DNA from: Giardia intestinalis | Lineage: Eukaryota | DNA: 64,000 nt | Assembly: GCA_000002435.2 (NCBI GenBank) | Contig: CM018791.1 | Direction: 5' to 3' (one strand) | Position numbers and translations under genes: made by a program | Shown here: one piece after another, positions 8,908 through 35,626 of the stretch | Position numbering within the stretch: the first letter of the stretch is position 1 | Layout of the letters: every line of letters starts with the position of its first letter | Notes under the pieces: model-generated | Seen by the model: only the letters and a program-made list of their open reading frames with translations | Databases searched by the model: none | What the model was told of the DNA's origin: nothing

Positions 8908-9045
8908 TTAAACTTCCTCTGCCTGTAAGATATACCAATTACCAAAGGCCACTTAAATTCCTATCTTAATATCTGTAGTTATAAAATTTTAACAGACTTC
9001 TGTAAGATTTAGCACGTTGCATGAACAGAAATCCCAAAAAAGTAA

Positions 9046-12000
9046 ATGAAGCGAGACAAGCTTCTTTTAAATGGCAAGTATAGCATCAATGTTAAAACTA
9101 ACGGGGAGCGGACGTACAAAGCGCTATGTAATATTGATGGCATAGTACCTGCAATAAAGATTTACCGGCTTTCGGACGTCTCGAAGAGCTCAGTCGACTT
9201 TGACCAAAAGGAGATAGACACTGCTGCACGGAGCCTCCTACAACCAAACTTAGTTAAATATATCGAAGCATTTGCGGACAAGGAGTATTTCTACGTTGTT
9301 ATGGAATTTGTGCCTAACAGCTTAGACCAGATTATTGCTCACCAGCGAAGTACAGAACATCTTGCTGCGCTCTATGTGACCCAGATTGTCAAGGGCTTAA
9401 TTTTCATTCACTATAACGGCTATACTCATAAGCGAATCACACCAGAACATATATTAATCACAAATGACGGATTTGTCAAAATTAGTGACTTTGTCCTCCA
9501 AAACGCATACTTTGCAGATGGTGACAAGGATGTTCGTGACATGGCACCAGAGGAAATACTGCTTCTAGGCAGGACAACGGCCGTTGACATCTGGAACCTT
9601 GGACTCCTCCTGTTCAACTGTCTAGCACGGGAACACTTTTTCAAGAATATGGCAGATCAAGAAATAATAAGATTGTTCCAGTCTACTAATGCACAGAACA
9701 CGATCAATGAGCTTGTCACTTTTCGCCTTGCCGAATGCAATTTAAACGTGTCCCAAGCGTGCAAAGAATTCATACTTGCTTGCTTATCCATAGATTACAC
9801 CTTCAGACCATCTGCACAGAGCCTTCTGCAGGCTTCATTCTTAAAGCAAACTAACACTGAGATTGTGTGTGGGAAAACAGGTGCGTCTACGTTGAATCAA
9901 AACCAAATAGATGAGATACAAGCTCTTAATGACGTGAGTGCAGGACTAACAACGTTGACAAGCCAGATTCCAGACAAAGGACACGCAGCCACTAACATCC
10001 AATCCACACTGAATCATGTAGTCACTAAATCAGCAAAGCAATTAACCACTATACCTCCCCCTACTCCTCCATATTCTAATTTTTCGCGGGCTCAAGAGAC
10101 TGAGGGGGACTCGAAGACGATTAGCAGTGGCTTTAATAAACAAGACCAAGAGATTCTTCGTCGTGCCATCCTAAATATCCCATCTGCTTCAGAAGAGTGT
10201 AGAAATTCCTATGCCATCTCTGCAGGAGACGCCGCCACACTTGCAGCTATGCGAAGTCCTGAAAAGGCCATCAATACGTTTACCTGCATTCCTGCAACTG
10301 CAAACTTCCCCATGCCTGATGATGCTCCGAATAATAAGCAAAAGTTAAGAGCAAAAAGCATCGAGGCAGGAGCTAAGCAAGGGAAGAAGCTGAAACACCG
10401 TGTGGAAAATAAGCTGGAGTGTGTAGACAATCAGCTGGACGATTCATCATTTGATCTTCAGGACGTGAAGATCATAGGAAAATTAGAAGTCAAAAGATAT
10501 GAGGACAGCACCACCGGCGACAACTTTAGTGACGTGATTGAAAATGATCCCGCTGTCGATAAAGGGCACCACCTGGGAGGTTCTGTTGCTGATCATATTC
10601 AGAGCAAACCCCGCCTCATTCAAACAAATTCAGCAGTATCTTCATCTAACTTAAACCCACAAAAGAAAAATCAGACAAAAACTCAACGAACAGCATCAAA
10701 GCCGGCAAGAAACCATGCGCTCAGTGCAGGGGATGACTTAATTTATGATGCAGCGGCAGCAGATAAGCATTCTGAGAAAATACATCCTAAAACTCGGAAG
10801 ACGCAGCGCGCCATGTCTACCGTAACAACTAGAGCAATAGCAAAGCAGCCGACATACCAGAATGCATATTCGCGAAATGCAGGAGCAGCCGCCGGTACTG
10901 CTCGACAAGATCCCTGTTACACCACCCTTGCCACTGGATGGGCAAAGAGAGAGATGAATACCAAATCCAAGAGGAACTTCCCTGAGCAGAGTTTGTTGAC
11001 CACTACAAAGGATCCCGTGTTCCCCATAGCTCAGACAGCTCTCAAAAGAACTACCTGTCCGCTATCACTAGATACACTAGACGATCACTGGAACTCTAAC
11101 TCCTATTCTTCCGACGACAACATTTTGAAAAATAGTTCGCTTAAGCACACAAATTGCCCCTATCGAGCTCCAGATGGGAACAACTCCTGTTCAGAAATAA
11201 GTTGTACCGACATGGTTAATCCTCTTTCTTCGAAGTCTCACCATAAGTCCATCTTTGGTGACGAACGTTCAAAGGATCATTCAGATAAGCTCATAGCTAG
11301 CTTAAGTATTGAGAATAATGCACAAGGACCTGAAAATCTGGATATGTTTGTAGATAAATCCCAGAAATCTGGCACTAAAAAGGTTTCACTAACTCGGTCG
11401 GATTTTCCTAAGGACTCTCTTCATACCGCACCTATTTCTCCAGAGTCCCCTCAAGAAATAAAGACCTATGTGGACAATGATATTAATGAAGCGTACACTT
11501 TCTCCACTGTGTCTGCAGAACCCGTCCAGCCATTTGTCTTGCACTTTGGAGGCTCTCCAGCTGCTACATCTAGATTATGTACTGTGACTAATCTCGACAA
11601 AAGGTCCTCGAGGCAGGAGAATTGCCAAAACGATGACCCTTCTATCAACCTTGATACCATTGCACTTCCACAGGATCAGGATATTATGTCATTGATGCAT
11701 AAGCGCCAGCTTATGTTGCAGCAGATGGATCCTCACATGGACGATACTAGCAGCGCATTTAGTAGTGGAACTAGCATGGCAAATTTAGAGAAGAAGGCTG
11801 CTGTCATAGAATCTGGCAAAGACACGCCTAAATCTGGTGCAGCATCGCCGTCCCGTCTAGTGTATCAGCAAAAGAATTCCTCAGCCGACAATATCGCCAA
11901 TAATCATCTCGGTTTGGCTAAGGATGTACTTGCAAATCAGCAGAAGCGTCAGTGCACGGACCCCTCCAGCCTATCTGCTAGCACTGATATGCTTACCCAG

Positions 12001-14297: not shown

Positions 14298-15461
14298 TTA
14301 TCTTTTCCCAGCTGAAGGCATAATCCTAAACCAGAAATCTGCATGGAGCTCTGCTTCCTCTGGCAGATCAGTAACAAAGACACAGTTATTGATAGCATCT
14401 GTACCATACACGGCACGAACGCTCTCTGGAGCAAGATATGTGGCAATCTTAGGTTCAAACGGTCCTGCAAACGCACGAAGCGTCTCCACCATGTTGACTT
14501 CTTCTGGGGGTCTATGGGTAGCTACCTCGAGCGCAATGCAGGGGCCTGTACTGAATACGTCTATGTACTCGCTCCATCGCGGTATAACCCCTTGGTATGC
14601 TGCCATCACCTCGGCAAGATCGTTTGCTGTAGGGATGCACGTGTTGATGCCGGTAATATAAATGTCCGGCGATATCTTGCTGATGTAATTAACCAAGCCA
14701 ACAAGGATATGACCAACATAGTCCTTGAACTTGGGTTGGATTAGCATGACCGAGTTATTTCTGCAGCCAATTGCGGCGACAGGACATAGCCTGAATACAA
14801 TGCCTAGCTCTCTGTCTGCGTCTCCCTTGCTTGCACTCCCGTGGAACGCGTTGCTGGTAACGTCAACACCATATTTTGCGCGCAAGTGCTTCGATGGATC
14901 GCACTTGGATGGATCCGTGGGCCCTATTATATCTCTCCAGGCCAATATAGCGTTTGGGCCTATCAGCTCAATCACACATGCAGGTCCCGCCATGACCATC
15001 GCAGCTAAGTTAGGGAAAAAGGCCTTTCCTATATGTTCTTCGTAAAACGCGTTCACATCGTTCTCCGAGAAGCGTACCATACGTATTCTGCTGATCCTGA
15101 GATTGCGTTGCATTGCTGAGATGATCGCGTCAGCAATAATGATCGGGCTCTCAGCCACCGCGTGAGGCTTCACGATCGCACACGTGGCTTCCTTTTCTGC
15201 GGAGAGGGCATTGCACGTAAAGTCATTTGCATAGCCCACAATCTTGAGCTGGCGTGAGTAGATGGTAACCGTACCACCTACGTGACAGTCTGCGAAGTTG
15301 AACTCCGGATACTGACATTTCTTAAGAAACACCCTCTTGGTAGCGACCTCGTACATGTCTATCTCCCTCGTGTCTGGGTAGTATGAGAGGATATAAGGCC
15401 TGTCTTGGTCAGCAATACGGTCGTACCATAGCACGTTGAAGCTGTAACGAGTGGTATCCAT
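14298..15461 (-). CDS. NME7-like nucleoside diphosphate kinase with an N-terminal DM10 domain and tandem NDK domains. The first track codon is TTG; the real start is the second codon, ATG (MDTTRY).
   Basis: NDK motifs CAIVKPHAV and NAFHGSASKGDADRELGIVF (compare NDK IHGSDSVESAEREIxLWF). The N-terminal ~90 aa are DM10-like. AT-rich cctaaaatttgATG. Confidence 0.7.
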   Translation of the reverse strand: MDTTRYSFNVLWYDRIADQDRPYILSYYPDTREIDMYEVATKRVFLKKCQYPEFNFADCHVGGTVTIYSRQLKIVGYANDFTCNALSAEKEATCAIVKPHAVAESPIIIADAIISAMQRNLRISRIRMVRFSENDVNAFYEEHIGKAFFPNLAAMVMAGPACVIELIGPNAILAWRDIIGPTDPSKCDPSKHLRAKYGVDVTSNAFHGSASKGDADRELGIVFRLCPVAAIGCRNNSVMLIQPKFKDYVGHILVGLVNYISKISPDIYITGINTCIPTANDLAEVMAAYQGVIPRWSEYIDVFSTGPCIALEVATHRPPEEVNMVETLRAFAGPFEPKIATYLAPESVRAVYGTDAINNCVFVTDLPEEAELHADFWFRIMPSAGKR

Positions 15462-17789: not shown

Positions 17790-19856
17790 TTAGTCTAGCT
17801 TCCCGATGAAGTCCATTACATTGATGAAAATTCCCTCCACGCATATTAGACCGAATAAAGCTATAACGCTCCATGCGAGCATATGACGACGAGGAGTCAT
17901 TTTCGCACGCTCCAGGTCTGGATCAATGGTCCCGCAGATATTTCCTATTTCCATTATGCGTGTCATAGGAACTGCTGGAAGGACATTTGTAACGTCTTCT
18001 GTAATGCACGTTGTCTGCTCTGTAGATTCTGTAGAGTCTATCTTATTAGCCTCAGAGATTCGAATGCTGTTCTGGGTTAGACTGAGCGTTTCAGACTGCT
18101 GGTTGACGCCTTCTTTCTTTGAGAGTGCACGCGTCAGGGTGGGTCTGCTATTAAAAATGGATGTTGTGCGTGGCCGCGAATATTCCACATTAACTGTGAA
18201 TGGTGGTGGCTTGGATGCTTTAGAAATTGGCGACGCCGACGATGTTTGTGATGCAGAAAAGCTGGGGACTGCGGTAGAAAACGACCTTCCACGTATGACT
18301 CCAATAACGGACCGGATGCTCAGCACGGGGTCCTCCATGGATTTGCCGCGGACTTTAGCGGAAGTTACGTTGATAGGATCGGTGTTACTTAGTGCCCTGG
18401 CTCTAGAAAGAACCTCGTTAGCACTGCCGGGGAGCATTAGTGCCAGCACAGAGGTCCCAATAGCCTCTGTGCGTACAACTCCTAGATGATCTGCAGCCTC
18501 CTTGAATTCTTCATTGATGTCATGCGGATACTCGGCTCGGAGAAATGGTAGCTTATAGTGTACCCAAATTGGGACTCCAAAGTAGATCACCCCACCGCAC
18601 AGTGACCCCACAAGTCCAAAAATGGCAGCTATGTTTTCGTAGACAAGGGCTATACCTACACCAGGAATCAAAAACACAAAGCTAAACGCTACAAAGAGCC
18701 CGTACCACCGTCGTGGATTGTTCTCACAATCTACCTTTGTATACGCAATTAAGGAAAGCTTAAGCGGAAACAGAGCAATGGGATACGTAACACAAACAAC
18801 CAGGCCATACATTGCTTTTATCGATGTGATCCAGTAGTCCACACAGATATCGAACGACGATAATAGATTAGGAAGGATTGACTTGCCAAACAAGAGGGCG
18901 CCAAATATGCCTGTTAACACGTATAACATTGTGCAGAAAATGAACGCAATTGTAATTGATATCTTAAGAATACGCATTCGAAGATACATGGGACCACTGA
19001 TGAGTTCGAGCATCGCCGGGACGGCCAACTGAGAGGTATAGTTTCCTTGAAGCAAGGGTATGTAGCTGAAGAAGAACAGGAACCCCATGGGCAGGGACCC
19101 GAGCCCCAACCCCTTGCTCGGGGACGGCCACCAGGGGATCGCAGGGCGGAAGAAGCCCCCTGCCGTGCTGCCGTTGGTCGGCTTTGCTGAAGGAAAGCGA
19201 GGGCAGACCTGCCCGTTGCGTCCGAGGGAGATGAAGTAGTATACAGGGATGGTGACGGCCATGCCCATCGCAAAGAAGATGGAGACAGACGCTATGGCAG
19301 AAAGCACCTTCGTGGACTTGAGGAGAGAAAGAGGAAGGATGATGAGGAAGGAGACGCCGGCTTTTATCACGTATGGTATCCACTTGTGTGAGTCGAACGA
19401 AGGAAGGAATGACTGTAGAATCCCAATAACTGATTGGCTAGCAATGATGATGTAGCTCGTAAGAAAGCCAAAGTAGAGAACTATAAGCATTGCGTCCATG
19501 ACGTATGCAAACTTTGGCCCAATGACCTTTTGGGCTAATGCCCGATACGAGTAAGACCGCGTAAGGTAACAACCTTCAATAACGGGGAAAATAAGAACCA
19601 GCGCTATGGCGAAGGATAATGGTAAAACAAAGAACATTAAACCTAAGCCAACTCGTGAGAAAATGTATGCAATGGATAACAAAGCAGATCCCACGATTTG
19701 GGAAATAAGCATAAAGGAAGCAGAGACTGATGAGACATTCCCCCTAGGGAAGCCTTCGTTTTGTTTGTTATTGAGGTGCTTCTCGCCGAACAAACCGTCC
19801 TTTCCACTCATTTGAATTTTAGTGTTACAGGTGCTTGCTTTCACGTCTATCAACAT
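17790..19856 (-). CDS. Amino acid transporter of the Aa_trans/AAAP family (SLC38-like), with about 11 TM segments and a long hydrophilic C-terminal tail. The track start is TTG; the first ATG is at 19856 and an alternative is at 19811.
   Basis: N-terminal motif ASFMLISQIVGSALLSIAYIFSRVGLGLMFFVLPLSFAIALVLIFPVIEGC followed by repeated hydrophobic helices, typical of Aa_trans permeases. Confidence 0.6.
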   Translation of the reverse strand: MLIDVKASTCNTKIQMSGKDGLFGEKHLNNKQNEGFPRGNVSSVSASFMLISQIVGSALLSIAYIFSRVGLGLMFFVLPLSFAIALVLIFPVIEGCYLTRSYSYRALAQKVIGPKFAYVMDAMLIVLYFGFLTSYIIIASQSVIGILQSFLPSFDSHKWIPYVIKAGVSFLIILPLSLLKSTKVLSAIASVSIFFAMGMAVTIPVYYFISLGRNGQVCPRFPSAKPTNGSTAGGFFRPAIPWWPSPSKGLGLGSLPMGFLFFFSYIPLLQGNYTSQLAVPAMLELISGPMYLRMRILKISITIAFIFCTMLYVLTGIFGALLFGKSILPNLLSSFDICVDYWITSIKAMYGLVVCVTYPIALFPLKLSLIAYTKVDCENNPRRWYGLFVAFSFVFLIPGVGIALVYENIAAIFGLVGSLCGGVIYFGVPIWVHYKLPFLRAEYPHDINEEFKEAADHLGVVRTEAIGTSVLALMLPGSANEVLSRARALSNTDPINVTSAKVRGKSMEDPVLSIRSVIGVIRGRSFSTAVPSFSASQTSSASPISKASKPPPFTVNVEYSRPRTTSIFNSRPTLTRALSKKEGVNQQSETLSLTQNSIRISEANKIDSTESTEQTTCITEDVTNVLPAVPMTRIMEIGNICGTIDPDLERAKMTPRRHMLAWSVIALFGLICVEGIFINVMDFIGKLD

Positions 19857-20067
19857 GTATTTATGAAGATAATCGCATGCTTCTTTGGTGTTACATATGT
19901 CACTTAAACTAGCATTTTGCTTTTCTTTTGTTGTTTTTAAGCCCGCAACATAATGCTTAAAACACGACAAGAATCATATCTTTGTTGAGTAGTACATCTT
20001 TCTAGTCTTAAGTAAAGGGAGGCAAAGGTAGAATCCACTGGGAAATGCATCCAAATAAAAAGCCATT

Positions 20068-20859
20068 ATGACCCGAGACGAGGAGATGATGTTTACGCTT
20101 CGCACCGGGGCAATTCCCCAGCTTCCCAGTCCAGAAGTTGTTCCATCCACCACTGGGGCCGAGGAGTTACATCAGATGATCATCCTGAAGGAGTGGAAGC
20201 GGGTCTGGTATCTTGGCGGTCATGGGGGCGTGCTCATTGAGATAGCTACACCATACGACGACGTTCGCAGAGGTAAGATGAACTGTCTACACTATGCGGC
20301 TCTAACGGGATCTACTGAGGCTGTGCGCTTACTCATGCAATCTGCGGGTAGGAAGGCGGCAAAGATCTTTATTATCAATGGCCCCAAGTACCATAATCCA
20401 TCTGCCTTGATGTTGGCTGCAGCTGGGGGACACACAGAGGTTGTGCAGCTCCTTATGAACGCGGAAGCACGCATGACAGAGGATTGGGGTGGCAAGACTG
20501 CGCTCATGATTGCCGCTTGGAATGGACATTGCGATGCTGTGCTCCTTTTGGCCGATGCTGAAGCCCGAATGCAGGATAACGCTGGGATGACTGCTCTGAT
20601 GCTTTCGGTGTGGACGGAGATGCCGGGGTGCACCTCTGTCCTGGCTCCTCTAGAGGCCGGTCTGATGGATGCATCTGGTCATACTGCGCTGTGCCACGCG
20701 TGCATGCACGGCTCGGTTGACTGTGCTAGACTTCTTGCTCCTCACGAAGCGGGTCTCCGCCTTCCCAGTGGGCAAACAGTTGCAGAGGCTGCCCTCTCCA
20801 AGACTCCTAGCCAGTACAAAGATGCTGTTGCTAACGTTCTAGCATCGTTCTTGCAGTAG
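20068..20859 (+). CDS. Ankyrin-repeat protein of the Giardia 'protein 21.1' type.
   Basis: Tandem ANK repeats CLHYAALTGSTEAVRLLMQ / SALMLAAAGGHTEVVQLLMNAEARMTEDWGGKTALMIAAWNGHCDAVLLLADAEARMQDNAGMTALM. AT-rich initiator ccaaataaaaagccattATG. Confidence 0.8.
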   Translation: MTRDEEMMFTLRTGAIPQLPSPEVVPSTTGAEELHQMIILKEWKRVWYLGGHGGVLIEIATPYDDVRRGKMNCLHYAALTGSTEAVRLLMQSAGRKAAKIFIINGPKYHNPSALMLAAAGGHTEVVQLLMNAEARMTEDWGGKTALMIAAWNGHCDAVLLLADAEARMQDNAGMTALMLSVWTEMPGCTSVLAPLEAGLMDASGHTALCHACMHGSVDCARLLAPHEAGLRLPSGQTVAEAALSKTPSQYKDAVANVLASFLQ

Positions 20860-20912: not shown

Positions 20913-21554
20913 ATGATTAATACTTTAGACATATTCCGCGGAAGTCAGTTTTCAAAAATAATGAGAGTCATTTGCATCGACGGGTGTCACGGCGTTGGCA
21001 AGACGGCTATCATTTCAGACATTGCGAAGCGAGGGTACCATGTGCTTGATGAGCTCTTCTTCGAGATGCCGAAGTTTCTAGTCCCTTCCCAGTCTCTCAC
21101 TGTAGAGTTTATTTGGATCTCAAACTGGTTCAAGCGCATTCTCGACATGCAGAAGTCCGGCATGGCGGATGACGCGGTCGTCTTTGCCGATAGATCACCC
21201 TTCTCTGCCGTTTTCTACTCGCGGGCATCTCCCGAGGACCGGCTGGCTCTAGAGCAGGTTATCCGCGGCATGATTGCAGAACTCTCCAAATACAACATTA
21301 CCATCCACACCGTAGGGCTGTTGGTCGAGCGCGAGGAGCTATGGAAGCGTGTCCAGCGGCGACTGGAGGCTGAGCCCTTCAGGCGGGAGTTCAACGAGGA
21401 TAAGCGCTGGTGGCTTGACCAAACTGCAGACTGGTACGAGAGTTTTAGATGGGATACTGTGATAGACAACAGCTCCCAGCGATCGTCCGTGACTGGCCTC
21501 TCGGCGTTGATCAGCCCGTTCATACGAGACGTATGCGGCATCAACTGGGACTAG
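20913..21554 (+). CDS. Deoxynucleoside kinase family P-loop kinase (dCK/dGK/TK2-like).
   Basis: N-terminal P-loop ICIDGCHGVGKT, DRS (ERS-type) motif FADRSPFSAVFY, and Arg-rich LID RVQRRLEAEPFRREF. Confidence 0.6.
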   Translation: MINTLDIFRGSQFSKIMRVICIDGCHGVGKTAIISDIAKRGYHVLDELFFEMPKFLVPSQSLTVEFIWISNWFKRILDMQKSGMADDAVVFADRSPFSAVFYSRASPEDRLALEQVIRGMIAELSKYNITIHTVGLLVEREELWKRVQRRLEAEPFRREFNEDKRWWLDQTADWYESFRWDTVIDNSSQRSSVTGLSALISPFIRDVCGINWD

Positions 21555-21595
21555 TTCCCCCAAGTGAATCCAGATCTCTGCCTTGTTGCTGGAGT

Positions 21596-22663
21596 TTACA
21601 CGTCAATGTAGTGGTTCCAGTTGAATCTGTCTGGGATCACCCCGTACTGTATGCCCTGGACAGTTTCATATAGTAGCTTGGTAACTTCGCCAACCTGATC
21701 GTCAGATTGCAGGAAGTCGATAACAGTGGAACCGCGGGTGATGGAAGCAATGGGCGTCACAACGACGGCCGTGCCTGTGGCTCCGCATTCTTGGAATGTC
21801 TTAACCTCTGTGAACGGGACCTCGCGCACATCAACCTTCCAGCCGAAGTACTGGGAAATAAGCTCGCGGAGAGTCTTGTTCGTGATCGAGGGCAAAATAG
21901 AAGGAGACTTAGGAGTAACGTAAGTGCACGAAACGATCTTGCCCGCCCCATCTCTCTGGATGTCCTTAATCCCAAAGAAGTTGCTGGTGGAGAACTCCTC
22001 AACAAACGTGTGCGTAGCAGCGTCGAGGTACAGCTGAATGGGGAAGCTCTTTTTCAGAGCAACGCTCTGGGCCTTAAGAGATGCGGCGTAGTTTCCGGCA
22101 CACTTCTTGCTGCCGACGCCATAGGGTGCTGCCCTGTCGAATTCGTCCATAACGATTGCGTTCACGCTCTTGAGGCCTCCCCGGTAATAAGGACCAACAG
22201 GCGCGACCATCATGAGGAACATGTATTCGGACGACGGTGCAACTCCAAGCTGGGCTCCGGTACCGATAACCAGGGGACGGACATAGAGGGAGCCCCCTGT
22301 ACCATATGGCGGGATATAGTCAACGTTATCCCTGACAACCATCGCAAGAGCATTGAGGAAGAGCTGCTCTGACGGGGACTCCATGCAGAGACCGTCGCAC
22401 GAGCTGATGAGCCTGCGGGCATTCTCAACTGGTCTGAAGGCAGCGACTCTGCCGTCAACAGTGCGGAAGACCTTGAGACCCTCGAAGACTGCCTGGCCGT
22501 AGTGAAGCGCAGAGGCCGCAATCGAAATATTGAATGTCGGCTCGTTTACCAGCTCAAGAGGGCTCCACTCGCCGTTTCTCCAGACACTGCGAACGTGGGA
22601 GCGCGTTTGCAGCCACGAAAACTTCAGCGCAGACCAGTCTATCGTGGAGGGATCGACAGCCAT
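21596..22663 (-). CDS. Branched-chain amino acid aminotransferase (class IV PLP fold).
   Basis: ALHYGQAVFEGLKVFR, SLYVRPLVIGTGAQLGV, GVGSKKCAGNYAASL and TGTAVVVTPI are characteristic BCAT blocks. Confidence 0.85.
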   Translation of the reverse strand: MAVDPSTIDWSALKFSWLQTRSHVRSVWRNGEWSPLELVNEPTFNISIAASALHYGQAVFEGLKVFRTVDGRVAAFRPVENARRLISSCDGLCMESPSEQLFLNALAMVVRDNVDYIPPYGTGGSLYVRPLVIGTGAQLGVAPSSEYMFLMMVAPVGPYYRGGLKSVNAIVMDEFDRAAPYGVGSKKCAGNYAASLKAQSVALKKSFPIQLYLDAATHTFVEEFSTSNFFGIKDIQRDGAGKIVSCTYVTPKSPSILPSITNKTLRELISQYFGWKVDVREVPFTEVKTFQECGATGTAVVVTPIASITRGSTVIDFLQSDDQVGEVTKLLYETVQGIQYGVIPDRFNWNHYIDV

Positions 22664-22970: not shown

Positions 22971-25900
22971 ATGACAGTGCTACTGCCTCCGATCATCCTC
23001 ATTCCTGGGGTTGGTGGATCAAAATTGGACGCAGTAAATAAGAAGAATGACAAAGTAGAGCGGGTCTGGATCTCGAAAGATGTCCTGCCTGTGCCTCAGC
23101 TGGGGAAAAAATTTGTGCATTATCTGTGGGGCCGGCCGGATCCCGAGACGCAACTATACACCAGTTATACTGAAGAGTATGCCGAAACGCGAATAGTTGA
23201 TGGCCTAGAGGGATGCTGGAGGCTTCTCGACCATTGGGTTATAAACACAGTCGAGCAACTTTTTAAGAACACAACTCTTGGGAAGTACTTCGTCACAATT
23301 ATTGGACGACTTATGCAGGACTATGGGTACCAACCGAACAAGAATCTTTTCGGCTTTTCCTACGACTGGCGCCAGCCTTTGTATGCGGAGTGTATCAAAG
23401 GAGAGCTGCACAAACTGATTATTCGTGTACGTGAGCTTAACAATGGCATGCCTGTTAACATCATTGCCCATTCCCTTGGAGGACTGGTCGGCCGAACTTA
23501 CTGCCAACTAACGCCGGATTGGATGACACACATCAGGCGCTTTATTACCATCGCGACCCCTTTTGATGGCAGTAGTAGCATGACGCTGAACAGCTTCATC
23601 AATGGGTATGCGCTCGACGTCCCAGGCATGAAGCTTGTGGCAGCTAGAGGAATTCAGGCATCCTCTTCCGTGACCATTTACCTATCGAACTTGCCCCCTC
23701 AGTATGAAGGAAATGATGTATCTCATAATAGGCGTAAACCTTTGGCCTACCTTTCCAATGGCTTGCCATACTGTACTTATTACTACAACAGCTGCATATA
23801 TCTCAAGAAAGTACACAAAGGCCTTAAACGGGCTAAACCCACCCACTACCGCCAAAGAACCTATCTTGAGAAACCGCCGGGATACCCTATTGACGGCCAC
23901 GAGCCCCTACACTCGCTCCTCTTTAACCCCCTACCGGCTTCCCTTAATGAGGAAGGGCAGTACAAGTCGTCTCAGTTTGATACGGATACCTTAGTTCACG
24001 ACGCAGAGAAAGACTCCAGACTACCCTGTAGTCTCAGGTCGCATTCTACTTCTCCGATCTCGACTAAGAGAAGCTCTAAGGTACTCAGCTCGTATCGCCC
24101 CTCGTCCTCCGTAACCAAAGCAGGAATCCAGCACAGGCGAATGCACTCTGACACCGTAGAGAAGCTCAAGATCACCCACCAAGAATTGACGCCCAAGCGC
24201 TACTCTGAGATCGTGCAATCAGGATTCGATGACACTGAGGATAAATCCTATCAAGCCAAGCTCTCTATAGGGCGAGCAATCCACTCTCGGAATGGATCTT
24301 TTATCACGCTAAAACAAAACCTTGATGTTCCAGAGCAGACCCCGAGCCACAGAAGGTCAGGCTCTTCAGCGTCGTCCGTTAGCCCAGGACCTAGTCACAT
24401 TGTGAATTATCACGAGCACAGCCATCGAGCAGTATCGCAAAGACAGTCGCGGATGCTTAATTTATCAAATATCTATATCACATTGGACTTTTCCAGATAT
24501 GGAAACAACGTCCCTGATATAGGTGCCATTCTATTGGGTCGATTCTTGAGCGACCCTACTCTTATTGCCAACGATAAGAAAAAGGAAGTGTATCAGCTCC
24601 TTATGAAGAACATAGAACGCAAGGTAATTGTCAAGACAGTAGGCATTAAGAAGCCGCGTGCAAGTGGGAAGAGTCTAGACACCCTGCTTGTACCGAACTA
24701 TAAGAGCAAGAAGTCGATGGCCGCTATTGAGGAGATTGTGAACACGAAGGGTACATGGAGATGGGAAGCCTACTCAATGTGGCCGCACCTAGGACGGACA
24801 AATGCGACGAGCATGGCCGCACATCCTTATTTTACGTTTAACAGCGTTGGATTCCCAGTGTTGAGGGAGGATTGCCCCTACCGCAATGAAGTCATCTCTG
24901 GAGTCATGCCCCACGGAAGCTCTTTCTCGCAGAACAGGGACCTGTATCTGATCGCGTCTGCCCAGGCCATATACATATCCACGAGGCACCTGACCGAGCC
25001 TCTGTACAGGATGGTCCTCGTTGGAGACGAGGAAAAGATGGTTAAAGGAAAGCAGTTAAACCTAGAATATGTCCCTCCGGACGATCTACATCTAATCACT
25101 GACACGACCATCTACAAGGCAGATGCCAGCGGTGTGTATAGCGCGCAAAACAAGGTCGCCGACAAGACAGACTCAAGTAACCGCGAAAAGACTTTGAAGA
25201 AAGGCATCAAGAAGCACTCCCATGGCAAGAAGATGCGCACTGTTGTGTGCCAAACCCCTGCTCCGTGGGTTTTTCTGCTGGACATTCTTGAGCAACCCTT
25301 GTACAATTTGCTGCGGCAGGTAACCAAGGTGGGAACCCTAGAGGCATATCTCTTTCAGCCATTCAAAGAATACTGGAAGTCAGTTGCTCGGGCCAGAGTG
25401 AAGGCGCTTGAGTACAATCTCCAAGAAGACATCGGATCATCTCAGATAATGACCAGGAGCGAGTCCGTCTTTCCTATGTTCACCAGTGTCTCCCTCCAGG
25501 ACCATAGTGCTCTCGAGCGATCACTGACAGCCAGCATACCCAGCAATGCCCTCACGGGGGATGCAGCCTATAAGTTGGACCTTGTACCAGAGGCGCCAAA
25601 CGGGGGCCTCACCAATGCACCAAGTCCCGAATCAACCACTCTGAGTATTCCTAGAAGGCCTAAGCAAGCTTCTCCAGTTCGGCCAGAAAAGTATCTCCGG
25701 AAAAGAAACGGCGACCCTCGGTGCATCCCCAAGGAGCTCATCGCCCAGTACCCCATCCTGTCCTCGATGAAGCCATGCACAACGGACGACTTTAGATTTA
25801 TCAGCATAAATGGGGGAAATGTGCCTACACCCATACACACGATCTATCCCAAGCCGATAAGCACATACGACGAGCTCCAGAGCCAGCTTCCTGTCTTCAT

Positions 25901-26147
25901 AATGGGCAGAGGAGACGGGACGGTCCTTCTCTCGGGAGCGCTGAGCGACAACTTTGACGACGCGCTCGTCCACGACAGAGTGGTGATCCCGGATGCCACG
26001 CACGGCGGGCTGCTCCACGACGAGGCCGTCTTCTACCTGATCTACATGGGGCTCGGGCTCCCCCTGCAGCTCCCGCACACCCACGGCGAGCCGGAGCCGG
26101 AAGAGCGGGGCGCCGGGCCGGCGAACGGCCGAGCAGAGGTTGAGTGA
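22971..26147 (+). CDS. LCAT/PDAT-family phospholipid acyltransferase or phospholipase, with a very large internal or C-terminal extension.
   Basis: IILIPGVGGSKLDA, FGFSYDWRQ, and nucleophile elbow AHSLGG. The Asp/His triad motifs MGRGDGTVLL and ATHGGLLHDE sit ~800 aa downstream, near the C-terminus. Confidence 0.8.
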   Translation: MTVLLPPIILIPGVGGSKLDAVNKKNDKVERVWISKDVLPVPQLGKKFVHYLWGRPDPETQLYTSYTEEYAETRIVDGLEGCWRLLDHWVINTVEQLFKNTTLGKYFVTIIGRLMQDYGYQPNKNLFGFSYDWRQPLYAECIKGELHKLIIRVRELNNGMPVNIIAHSLGGLVGRTYCQLTPDWMTHIRRFITIATPFDGSSSMTLNSFINGYALDVPGMKLVAARGIQASSSVTIYLSNLPPQYEGNDVSHNRRKPLAYLSNGLPYCTYYYNSCIYLKKVHKGLKRAKPTHYRQRTYLEKPPGYPIDGHEPLHSLLFNPLPASLNEEGQYKSSQFDTDTLVHDAEKDSRLPCSLRSHSTSPISTKRSSKVLSSYRPSSSVTKAGIQHRRMHSDTVEKLKITHQELTPKRYSEIVQSGFDDTEDKSYQAKLSIGRAIHSRNGSFITLKQNLDVPEQTPSHRRSGSSASSVSPGPSHIVNYHEHSHRAVSQRQSRMLNLSNIYITLDFSRYGNNVPDIGAILLGRFLSDPTLIANDKKKEVYQLLMKNIERKVIVKTVGIKKPRASGKSLDTLLVPNYKSKKSMAAIEEIVNTKGTWRWEAYSMWPHLGRTNATSMAAHPYFTFNSVGFPVLREDCPYRNEVISGVMPHGSSFSQNRDLYLIASAQAIYISTRHLTEPLYRMVLVGDEEKMVKGKQLNLEYVPPDDLHLITDTTIYKADASGVYSAQNKVADKTDSSNREKTLKKGIKKHSHGKKMRTVVCQTPAPWVFLLDILEQPLYNLLRQVTKVGTLEAYLFQPFKEYWKSVARARVKALEYNLQEDIGSSQIMTRSESVFPMFTSVSLQDHSALERSLTASIPSNALTGDAAYKLDLVPEAPNGGLTNAPSPESTTLSIPRRPKQASPVRPEKYLRKRNGDPRCIPKELIAQYPILSSMKPCTTDDFRFISINGGNVPTPIHTIYPKPISTYDELQSQLPVFIMGRGDGTVLLSGALSDNFDDALVHDRVVIPDATHGGLLHDEAVFYLIYMGLGLPLQLPHTHGEPEPEERGAGPANGRAEVE

Positions 26148-34789: not shown

Positions 34790-35626
34790 GACAGTCATTA
34801 TCTCGGCGAGATTCTTCTGCATCATCATCTGGTTGAAGCGGCGCTCCTCCGAATTCTTCTTGAGGATGGGGAGATACTTCGCCACGCTCTCTGCGAAGGA
34901 CTTGATCTTCTCGTTCATGCCACTGATGACGTGCTTCTTCTGAAGCTTTATGTTTCTCTCGGATGCGTCGAAGGACTCCTTGAAATTGCTGACCTCCTGG
35001 TTAAGCCTGTTGGCAGCTTGGGCGAACTCCCTCTCTATGATTGCCTCGAGCGAATTAATCTCCGTCTGGAGCCCGTGGCGAAGGGCGTCGAGCTTTGACT
35101 GGCCCGCGCGGATCCTGGAGTGGACCTCAGAGCGGAACGTGGACTTATACTGCTTTGTCTTGCCCACAAAGTCTGCATTCTCCGCGTCGAACGCCTTGAG
35201 CCTCTGCTCCATCGAGAAGACCTCGTCGATGAGGGGGCGGAGGGATGCGTTCAGGTGGGACACCAGCTCGGCGCGGCGGGCAGCGAACTGCTTGGCGACT
35301 TCGGACCTCAAGTCGGTAGACTCCAGCTCGCGGATGTTCTTTGTGGACAGAATGTCATTCTTGAGGTTGTTGAGGGTGATCATTATCTCGGAGGAGTCAG
35401 CGTGGCTGAACTTCGGCCTGAAGTCGTTCACCATGTGGTCCTGGAACATCTTAGAATTGAACATAAGGTCGTCAACCTTGTTCTCGGATATTAGGGATAG
35501 AGTCATGTACCCAGGGTCTTCCACCGCATTGGTGAGCCTCAGCGAGTCGCGGATGGTCGTAGGAGCGTCTTTAACTGCGAACTTGTGGTCCGAATAGGAG
35601 CTGACGGTCGAGAACGATGACTTCAT
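34691..35626 (-). CDS. Coiled-coil cytoskeletal protein, probably of the SF-assemblin/giardin family (beta-/delta-giardin/SALP-1-like).
   Basis: 311 aa, almost entirely heptad-periodic helix (EVAKQFAARRAELVSHLNASLRPLIDEVFSMEQRLKAFDAENADFV...). The size and composition match giardins. No motif-level proof. Confidence 0.4.
   Translation of the reverse strand: MKSSFSTVSSYSDHKFAVKDAPTTIRDSLRLTNAVEDPGYMTLSLISENKVDDLMFNSKMFQDHMVNDFRPKFSHADSSEIMITLNNLKNDILSTKNIRELESTDLRSEVAKQFAARRAELVSHLNASLRPLIDEVFSMEQRLKAFDAENADFVGKTKQYKSTFRSEVHSRIRAGQSKLDALRHGLQTEINSLEAIIEREFAQAANRLNQEVSNFKESFDASERNIKLQKKHVISGMNEKIKSFAESVAKYLPILKKNSEERRFNQMMMQKNLAEIMTVLSDNSEHFGDYCFSDLVPDTRIFDAIMTTKVD

Follow-up and report, generated by a model that had tools for sequence, protein, structure and literature searches.

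Do two metabolic enzymes that lie side by side in a protist genome record a single transfer from a bacterium, or are they neighbours with separate histories? This question is raised by a locus in a stretch of 64,000 nucleotides of Giardia intestinalis (G. duodenalis below; contig CM018791.1, assembly GCA_000002435.2), which was analysed at its full length and is called the window. A kinase-like open reading frame (ORF), GL50803_6185, lies on the plus strand at 20913..21554 in its maximal form of 213 aa and matches XP_001706261.1, 'Hypothetical protein GL50803_6185', exactly. On the minus strand, at 21596..22663, lies GL50803_6184 (gene ID from PMC3877021), which encodes a branched-chain amino acid aminotransferase (BCAT) of 355 aa. 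The two genes are convergent, and the gap between their stops is 41 bp (21555..21595). A first-pass annotation of the sequence had described this arrangement, and the ORF listing has both frames exactly where it placed them. Its guess of a diplomonad also proved right, as the protein matches identify the DNA as that of strain WB, assemblage A. It took both products for bacterial-type enzymes and asked whether they had been transferred together or formed a salvage/catabolic mini-cluster. Our analysis leads to another picture. Very probably the BCAT was acquired laterally from a bacterium, the kinase was inherited vertically, and their adjacency is due to chance, with neither co-transfer nor a cluster behind it. 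The two would then be independent functional genes of different history, brought side by side by chance in a compact genome.

What is the origin of the BCAT? The protein is identical over all 355 residues to PDB entry 7lv7, 'Branched-chain amino acid aminotransferase' (806.6 bits), and 100% identical to the NCBI entry 'Branched-chain amino acid aminotransferase [Giardia duodenalis]'. Its fold is that of the class IV aminotransferases (PF01063, E=5.6e-22), and the structure has been solved experimentally (7lv7). Over its full length it scores above the equivalog cutoffs of two NCBIfam models, NF009897 (362 bits against 307) and TIGR01123 (320.6 against 250). Against other PDB chains a gradient is seen, from 3uyy (291 bits), 4dqn (287.5) and 6jif (267) through two mycobacterial enzymes (195 and 179) down to human BCAT1 and BCAT2 at about 110-117 bits, so that the human branch is far from the Giardia enzyme. 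The listing shows molecule names only; we take 3uyy, 4dqn and 6jif to be bacterial, and the other organism names given here for PDB chains are our assumption as well. With the ilvE_II BCATs, represented by TIGR01123/NF009897 and these three structures, the Giardia protein has in common the fold of class IV and the lysine motif KxxGNY. It differs from the ilvE_II homologues of ~337 aa by an N-terminal extension of ~18 residues and otherwise by nothing notable. Lys187 in KKCAGNY (22103..22105, minus strand) is the probable candidate for the lysine that binds pyridoxal phosphate (PLP), if the motif of E. coli IlvE is, as we take it to be, KAGGNY with K159. Judged from equivalog-level family membership, activity on leucine, isoleucine and valine is most likely. 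The enzyme would interconvert these amino acids and the 2-oxo acids in a PLP-dependent reaction, using 2-oxoglutarate/glutamate.

Homologues of the BCAT were searched for among 5.8 billion proteins, and the top 120 matches were listed. After the Giardia sequences come a relative with 59% identity, Hexamita inflata with 57%, and then proteins of ~337 aa with 53-58% identity. Few of the latter are named, and those named among the top 120 are all bacterial (Kiritimatiellia, Betaproteobacteria, Accumulibacter and an unclassified metagenome-assembled genome); one sequence labelled as that of a brown alga, Nemacystus, is also found among the matches. In a neighbour-joining (NJ) tree of the top 120 (337 columns, 200 bootstraps), three Giardia sequences, the 59% relative (P0009) and Hexamita form a clade with 96% support. 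A bacterial origin is argued for by the score gradient from bacterial-type to human chains together with the bacterial names of the homologues. The gene would have been acquired once from a bacterium by an ancestor of the diplomonads, before Giardia and Hexamita split. This half of the earlier proposal is therefore sound: ilvE_II cutoffs, PDB scores and named bacterial homologues all bear out a class IV aminotransferase of bacterial type. The lateral origin is already known and is not new, as GiardiaDB already carries GL50803_6184 under the label 'lateral transfer candidate' (PMC3877021). The same source reports the protein in the proteomes of trophozoites and encysting cells.

Two observations on relatives of the BCAT may be added. 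The closest relatives outside G. duodenalis, for the BCAT (59%) as for the kinase (49%), belong to a GC-rich (62-69%) eukaryote seen on contigs L003 and L020 (Logan SRR14944320) and L001 (JGI 3300010163); its BCAT groups with that of Hexamita rather than with that of Giardia in the NJ tree. On the H. inflata contig CAXDID020000357.1 (L007), a tandem repeat with a 334-bp unit (9000-10824; 5.4 copies, 87% matches) lies directly 3' of the BCAT gene. In each copy the last ~25 codons of BCAT are encoded anew, with 68-70% identity to the C-terminus of the Giardia protein, and therefore the 3' end of the Hexamita gene has been serially duplicated.

What kind of enzyme is the kinase? It had been assigned to the deoxyribonucleoside kinases (dNKs) on the strength of three motifs, and all three could be located in the sequence. 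The P-loop or Walker A motif IDGCHGVGKT (20976..21005, plus strand, as are the other motifs) aligns to the P-loop of Drosophila dNK. ADRSPFSA (21186..21209) is the counterpart of the 'ERS' of dNKs and the 'DRY' of thymidylate kinases (TMPKs), and aligns to IMERSIFSA of the Drosophila enzyme. The Arg-rich LID WKRVQRRLEAEPFRR (21342..21386) aligns to YERIRQRARSEE of the same protein. Walker A, ERS-type motif and RxxxRxR LID thus stand in the canonical dNK order, as GCHGVGKT, DRS (with Glu replaced by Asp) and KRVQRRLEAEPFRR, and in this form the whole family conserves them, in alignment with the Drosophila motifs. In 48 family members, the Gly and Lys of Walker A, a Glu and a Trp of the helix that follows strand 2, the Asp-Arg and a Ser of DRS, the three Arg of the LID and one further Glu are invariant. 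Nearly invariant are the E-G-x-H-G of the P-loop, a Glu directly behind strand 2, one Gln, another Trp, a Tyr eight residues past the Arg, and the W, L and P of the LID. In the numbering of the 213-aa form, the conserved residues include Gln60, Glu65, Trp68, Trp72, Arg75 and Tyr102. The Glu right after strand 2 belongs to D46-E47 (21048..21053) and is a candidate catalytic base; Glu47 may be the equivalent of dNK Glu52, in an alignment that is uncertain in that stretch.

Family models place the protein less clearly. For the single sequence, the only Pfam model above threshold is AAA_28 (PF13521, 'NadR/Ttd14 AAA domain'; 40.1 bits, cutoff 27), the label that UniRef names of the family also carry. 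The Pfam dNK model PF01712 stays below its cutoff of 27 with 19.7-20.1 bits, and TIGR00041 (dTMP kinase) reaches 17.8-18 bits against a cutoff of 83.25. When the 48 family members are taken together, PF01712 is matched by 44 of them at E<=0.01 (best 4.8e-9; these are E-values, not bit scores), the Pfam TMPK model PF02223 by 24 of them at the same threshold, and TIGR00041 again by 44 (best 6.3e-10); PHROG 761, 'thymidylate kinase', matches the family at 1e-7 to 3e-12. The family profile finds the multisubstrate dNK of Drosophila at E=1.4e-7 to 7.6e-7, in an alignment that spans P-loop, ERS and LID and pairs DRSpySA with ERSIFSA and WkRiqkRL with YERIRQRA. TMPKs are found at about 6e-4, and the deoxyadenosine kinase (dAK) of Giardia at 0.15. 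A comparison table for the kinase gives 14.5 for S. aureus TMPK (4dwj), 13.7 for Sulfolobus TMPK (2plr), 13.3 both for Giardia dAK (8puu) and for human dGK (2ocp), 12.9 for PPK2 (6aqe) and 12.5 for NadR (8x7f), and Foldseek TM-scores against solved structures are about 0.55-0.62. The fold is indeed one of dNK type. Thus the dNK assignment stood in part: P-loop, DRS and Arg-rich LID are present and the protein is distantly dNK-like, but it falls below the Pfam cutoff, and TMPK models match about equally. As far as sequence and fold can tell, GL50803_6185 belongs to a family of its own within the dNK/TMPK branch of P-loop kinases, one that is uncharacterised and placed between dNK and TMPK. The protein would be a P-loop phosphotransferase of ~190 residues with ATP as phosphate donor, and its substrate is most likely a nucleoside or nucleoside monophosphate; what is seen directly is the fold class and the catalytic motifs.

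Could the kinase nevertheless be a bona fide dNK, a fourth one that serves the obligatory salvage of Giardia? This would be compatible with separate histories of the two genes, and the profile match to Drosophila dNK speaks in its favour. The score of GL50803_6185 is below the gathering threshold that defines the non-TK1 dNKs (PF01712; Drosophila dNK, human dCK and dGK, Giardia dAK and dNK2). At the base-reading Gln of dNKs no conserved Gln is found in the family, the Gln81 column being occupied by a variable residue and Tyr70 aligning to Leu, in a stretch where the hidden Markov model alignment is unreliable. Unlike the non-TK1 dNKs, the family has a conserved Gln, Glu and two Trp of its own between strand 2 and DRS. 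We regard this identity as possible but rather unlikely. Three other candidates were tried and rejected. The recognised non-TK1 dNKs of Giardia are dAK (GL50803_17451, PDB 8puu) and dNK2 (GL50803_4558), which is 38% identical to dAK (PMC11662666). The kinase is neither of them: a single-sequence search of PDB gave no relevant match though dAK is in PDB, and dNK2 is excluded because, with 38% identity, it would have matched dAK. Nor is it a missing TMPK of Giardia, since a canonical TMPK, GL50803_15380, already exists; that gene is up-regulated late in encystation, when encysting cells replicate DNA. A herpesvirus-type thymidine kinase, suggested by a likeness in two motifs (P-loop 'DGPHGMGKT', 'DRHP'), was unsupported by profile search. 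Literature searches for GL50803_6185 returned no paper.

Then where does the kinase come from? A word-indexed search found five relatives only, while an exhaustive profile search found 589 cluster representatives at E<=1e-3 and 161 at E<=1e-30. Names were attached to the homologues by a second search, with a profile of 48 sequences. The named members are without exception eukaryotes and represent at least six supergroup-level lineages; their labels are 'hypothetical' or 'NadR/Ttd14 AAA domain-containing'. They include Amoebozoa (Dictyostelium, Heterostelium, Tieghemostelium, Physarum), oomycetes (Pythium, Phytophthora, Saprolegnia, Aphanomyces, Achlya, Lagenidium, Thraustotheca), other stramenopiles (Cafeteria, Triparma), a dinoflagellate (Symbiodinium), Thecamonas and Andalucia, Preaxostyla (Monocercomonoides, Blattamonas, Paratrimastix) and Fornicata (Hexamita, Dysnectes, Aduncisulcus). 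Animal, fungal or land-plant sequences are not found among the named homologues. One contig from a gut metagenome carries a family member beside genes for ribosomal protein L19e and a PUF/NOP9 protein, and is thereby eukaryotic. A pattern scan based on a 6-sequence alignment found no relative in 185,579 bacterial and archaeal species genomes (GTDB, one per species). In an NJ tree of 42 domains (184 columns, 300 bootstraps), the oomycetes (83%), Saprolegniales (100%), dictyostelids (88%), Triparma (100%) and Monocercomonoides with Blattamonas (100%) are recovered, and Giardia groups weakly (36%) with Hexamita, Dysnectes and metagenome sequences. This indicates an old eukaryotic family that would have been inherited vertically in metamonads. 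Thus the view of the kinase as a bacterial-type, laterally transferred enzyme was not upheld: its named homologues are all eukaryotic, no prokaryotic relative was found in the scan, and some members lie on contigs resembling giant viruses. The outcome that had been set against a bacterial origin, branching with eukaryotes, is what the distribution and the shallow congruence of the tree point to for the kinase.

The viral members raise a further question, namely whether the family arose in giant viruses or was exchanged between viruses and protists, with the Giardia copy taken laterally from a virus or from another eukaryote. Three contigs that resemble giant viruses carry a family member. On L014 (1999-2583) it stands beside genes for an mRNA capping enzyme and ankyrin proteins, and on L015 (617-1222) among ORFans. 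On the 79-kb contig IMGVR_UViG_3300042923_001787 of IMG/VR (L021, 4001-4561) its neighbours are a Fapy DNA glycosylase, a NUDIX hydrolase, a polynucleotide kinase 3'-phosphatase and a gene with a weak Pox_A22 match. A viral protein in BFVD, A0A1X6WFI5, is 40% identical, with a TM-score of 0.8-0.9, and two virus-like sequences group weakly with Paratrimastix in the NJ tree. Against this origin, the Giardia copy joins two other fornicates, Hexamita and Dysnectes, if weakly, and the tree recovers shallow clades of eukaryotes. Moreover, a single match was found in 2.9 million viral contigs, compared with hundreds of representatives of eukaryotic type. As viral members are few and eukaryotic members many, capture by viruses from their hosts is the simpler explanation, and a lateral source of this kind for the Giardia gene is improbable. 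The viral copy that stands among DNA-repair and nucleotide genes gives a weak hint in favour of nucleotide metabolism. A natural tandem fusion of two kinase domains, P0275 (577 aa), was also seen on contigs from gut and environmental metagenomes (L008, 6907-8535; L009; L010); its domains are each other's closest relatives in the NJ tree (70%), and the surrounding ORFs have no Pfam matches. Such a fusion is compatible with a dimeric enzyme and may be a second weak hint of the same kind.

Are both genes of the pair functional? An orthologous block on a metagenome contig (L006), from another assemblage of G. duodenalis, was used to estimate selection. Amino-acid identity between the window and this contig is 94% for the kinase and 88% for the BCAT, and dN/dS is 0.024 and 0.056, respectively, at a dS of about 1.1-1.2. 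Both are real genes under strong purifying selection. For the kinase, the coding sequence probably starts at the second ATG, at 20961, so that it would span 20961..21554 and encode 197 aa from M17. This start is favoured because three lines of evidence agree. All homologues begin at the equivalent of M17, with MxVxC(L/I)EG; RefSeq XP_001706261.2 ('AAA domain-containing protein', ATCC 50803/WB) has the 197-aa model, as have the entries from P15 and from metagenomes; and an A/T-rich TCAAAAATA directly precedes the ATG at 20961. The upstream ATG (20913) is retained in L006, where the 16 upstream codons are still open. Over the 48 nt between the two ATGs (20913-20960) amino-acid change is relatively greater (omega 0.41) and the synonymous difference pS is unusually low at 0.23, compared with 0.60 in the body of the gene. 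This pattern suggests a conserved promoter or leader, which would fit at least as well as coding sequence.

Is there then any meaning in the adjacency? The four-gene block of ankyrin-repeat protein, kinase, BCAT and LCAT-like protein is syntenic in L006, and this other assemblage of G. duodenalis is the only place where the adjacency was found to be kept. In Hexamita inflata no kinase gene lies within 8 kb of the BCAT gene (L007), and each of the four Hexamita kinase copies (L016-L019) is followed by an epimerase, not by BCAT. In the SRR14944320 organism, a diplomonad-like eukaryote, the BCAT is on contig L003 and the kinase on contig L020, among entirely different neighbours. No sequences labelled Giardia muris appear among the matches listed in the kinase or the BCAT search. 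A residual synteny through an epimerase (kinase-epimerase in Hexamita, epimerase-BCAT on L003) was also considered and rejected, as the two epimerases have only a match of the Rossmann motif in common (E=0.006, 29 residues); there is no epimerase in the window. The conserved adjacency that a cluster would call for is thus missing in Hexamita and the SRR14944320 organism, and the kinase-BCAT adjacency arose only within the Giardia lineage. Spacing tells the same: among the 27 gaps between long ORFs in the window, whose median is 128 bp, the 41-bp gap takes rank 6th-7th, and the convergent gaps are 7, 20, 41, 125, 144, 270, 346 and 916 bp. The tail-to-tail spacing of 41 bp is therefore no more than chance and reflects the short intergenic regions of Giardia.

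One way in which the pair might still matter, with no co-transfer involved, is that the close 3' ends let the transcripts overlap or interfere and so couple expression of the two genes. The arrangement is kept between G. duodenalis assemblages despite a dS of about 1.2. The spacer also has one match to what we take to be the polyadenylation consensus of Giardia, AGTRAAY: AGTGAAT at 21563..21569 on the plus strand, 9 nt past the kinase stop, with AGTAAAC in the L006 spacer. For the BCAT no strict motif lies within the 41 bp, and its transcript may thus enter the kinase gene. The motif is weak evidence, however, since strict AGTRAAY follows only 3 of the 28 long ORFs in the window. Conservation of the arrangement is uninformative too, because the whole four-gene block is syntenic, which is no surprise at that distance. 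The sequence of the spacer is poorly conserved between the assemblages, unrelated genes in the window have convergent gaps of 7 and 20 bp, and other diplomonads do not have the arrangement. A functional pairing of this kind is very improbable. A mini-cluster is rejected for similar reasons: the adjacency exists only within G. duodenalis, and the convergent orientation excludes a shared promoter. As to co-transfer from one bacterial donor as a salvage/catabolic block, the two genes are adjacent, their GC content at third codon positions (GC3) is about 1.5 standard deviations (SD) above the mean and the BCAT is clearly of bacterial type, but the named kinase family is eukaryotic with no relative found in the scanned prokaryotes, the BCAT common to Hexamita lies apart from its four kinase copies, the SRR14944320 organism has the genes on separate contigs, and convergent orientation is not expected of an inherited operon, so that we give this idea almost no credence. 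Different origins and the lack of adjacency outside G. duodenalis together lead to the rejection of both co-transfer and mini-cluster.

Several points that weigh against separate histories should be noted. The BCAT tree is an unrooted NJ tree built without canonical eukaryotic BCATs, and the placement of the gene within bacteria rests on similarity scores. Most of the 589 representatives of the kinase family are unnamed proteins from metagenomes. The scan of prokaryotes relied on short peptide patterns, so that divergent relatives may have escaped it. Support for the deep nodes of the kinase tree is poor, and vertical inheritance is suggested by distribution and shallow congruence. Finally, the kinase has a GC3 of 0.667 and the BCAT one of 0.656, the second and third highest values of the 28 long ORFs (mean 0.545, SD 0.075), which might be taken for a foreign signature common to both. 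This excess is only about 1.5 SD, and one unrelated ORF is higher at 0.795. In Giardia high GC3 tracks high expression. Codon usage was therefore discarded as a signal of lateral transfer: the values are within the native range and are not diagnostic. The comparison with the window average that the first-pass annotation had proposed gives no evidence of foreign origin.

What do these results mean for Giardia? As a pair of co-transferred bacterial enzymes the locus matters little, since the lateral origin of the BCAT has long been annotated and the pairing is a matter of genome compaction. The kinase has a modest interest of its own, as deoxynucleoside salvage in Giardia is a drug target. Formerly a 'hypothetical' or 'AAA domain' protein, GL50803_6185 turns out to be under strong constraint and to belong to a sizeable kinase family that is unstudied and spread across protists. 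Three deoxynucleoside kinases have been counted in the nucleotide salvage of Giardia, and the activity on dC and dG is unassigned (PMC11662666). It is tempting to see in GL50803_6185 a third branch of the dNK/TMPK superfamily that would phosphorylate a nucleoside or deoxynucleoside and be an overlooked fourth salvage kinase; we consider this full proposal distinctly doubtful, and a role in deoxynucleoside salvage as such hardly less so. If it were true, the protein could be a parasite-selective activator of nucleoside-analogue drugs, given that Giardia has no ribonucleotide reductase and depends wholly on salvage. Its activity, once assayed, would yield either a further enzyme relevant to drugs or a substrate class new to the family.

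The genes around the pair are ordinary Giardia genes. On one side lie a gene for an Aa_trans amino-acid transporter (17790-19970, minus strand) and one for an ankyrin-repeat protein (20068-20859, plus strand), and on the other side is a gene for a 1058-aa protein with an N-terminal LCAT-like lipase domain (22971-26147, plus strand). An NDK7-like nucleoside diphosphate kinase is encoded at 14298-15461 on the minus strand, and further genes nearby encode a NEK-type kinase with ankyrin repeats, an AAA ATPase and a cathepsin-like protease. The transporter gene is two genes from the BCAT and the NDK7-like gene ~5.4 kb from the kinase; both look ordinarily eukaryotic. The ORF with the top GC3 in the window (0.795) encodes 215 aa at 34950-35597 on the plus strand and also has the most deviant codon usage. 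It has no sequence match in Pfam or PDB, and it may be a highly expressed lineage-specific protein.

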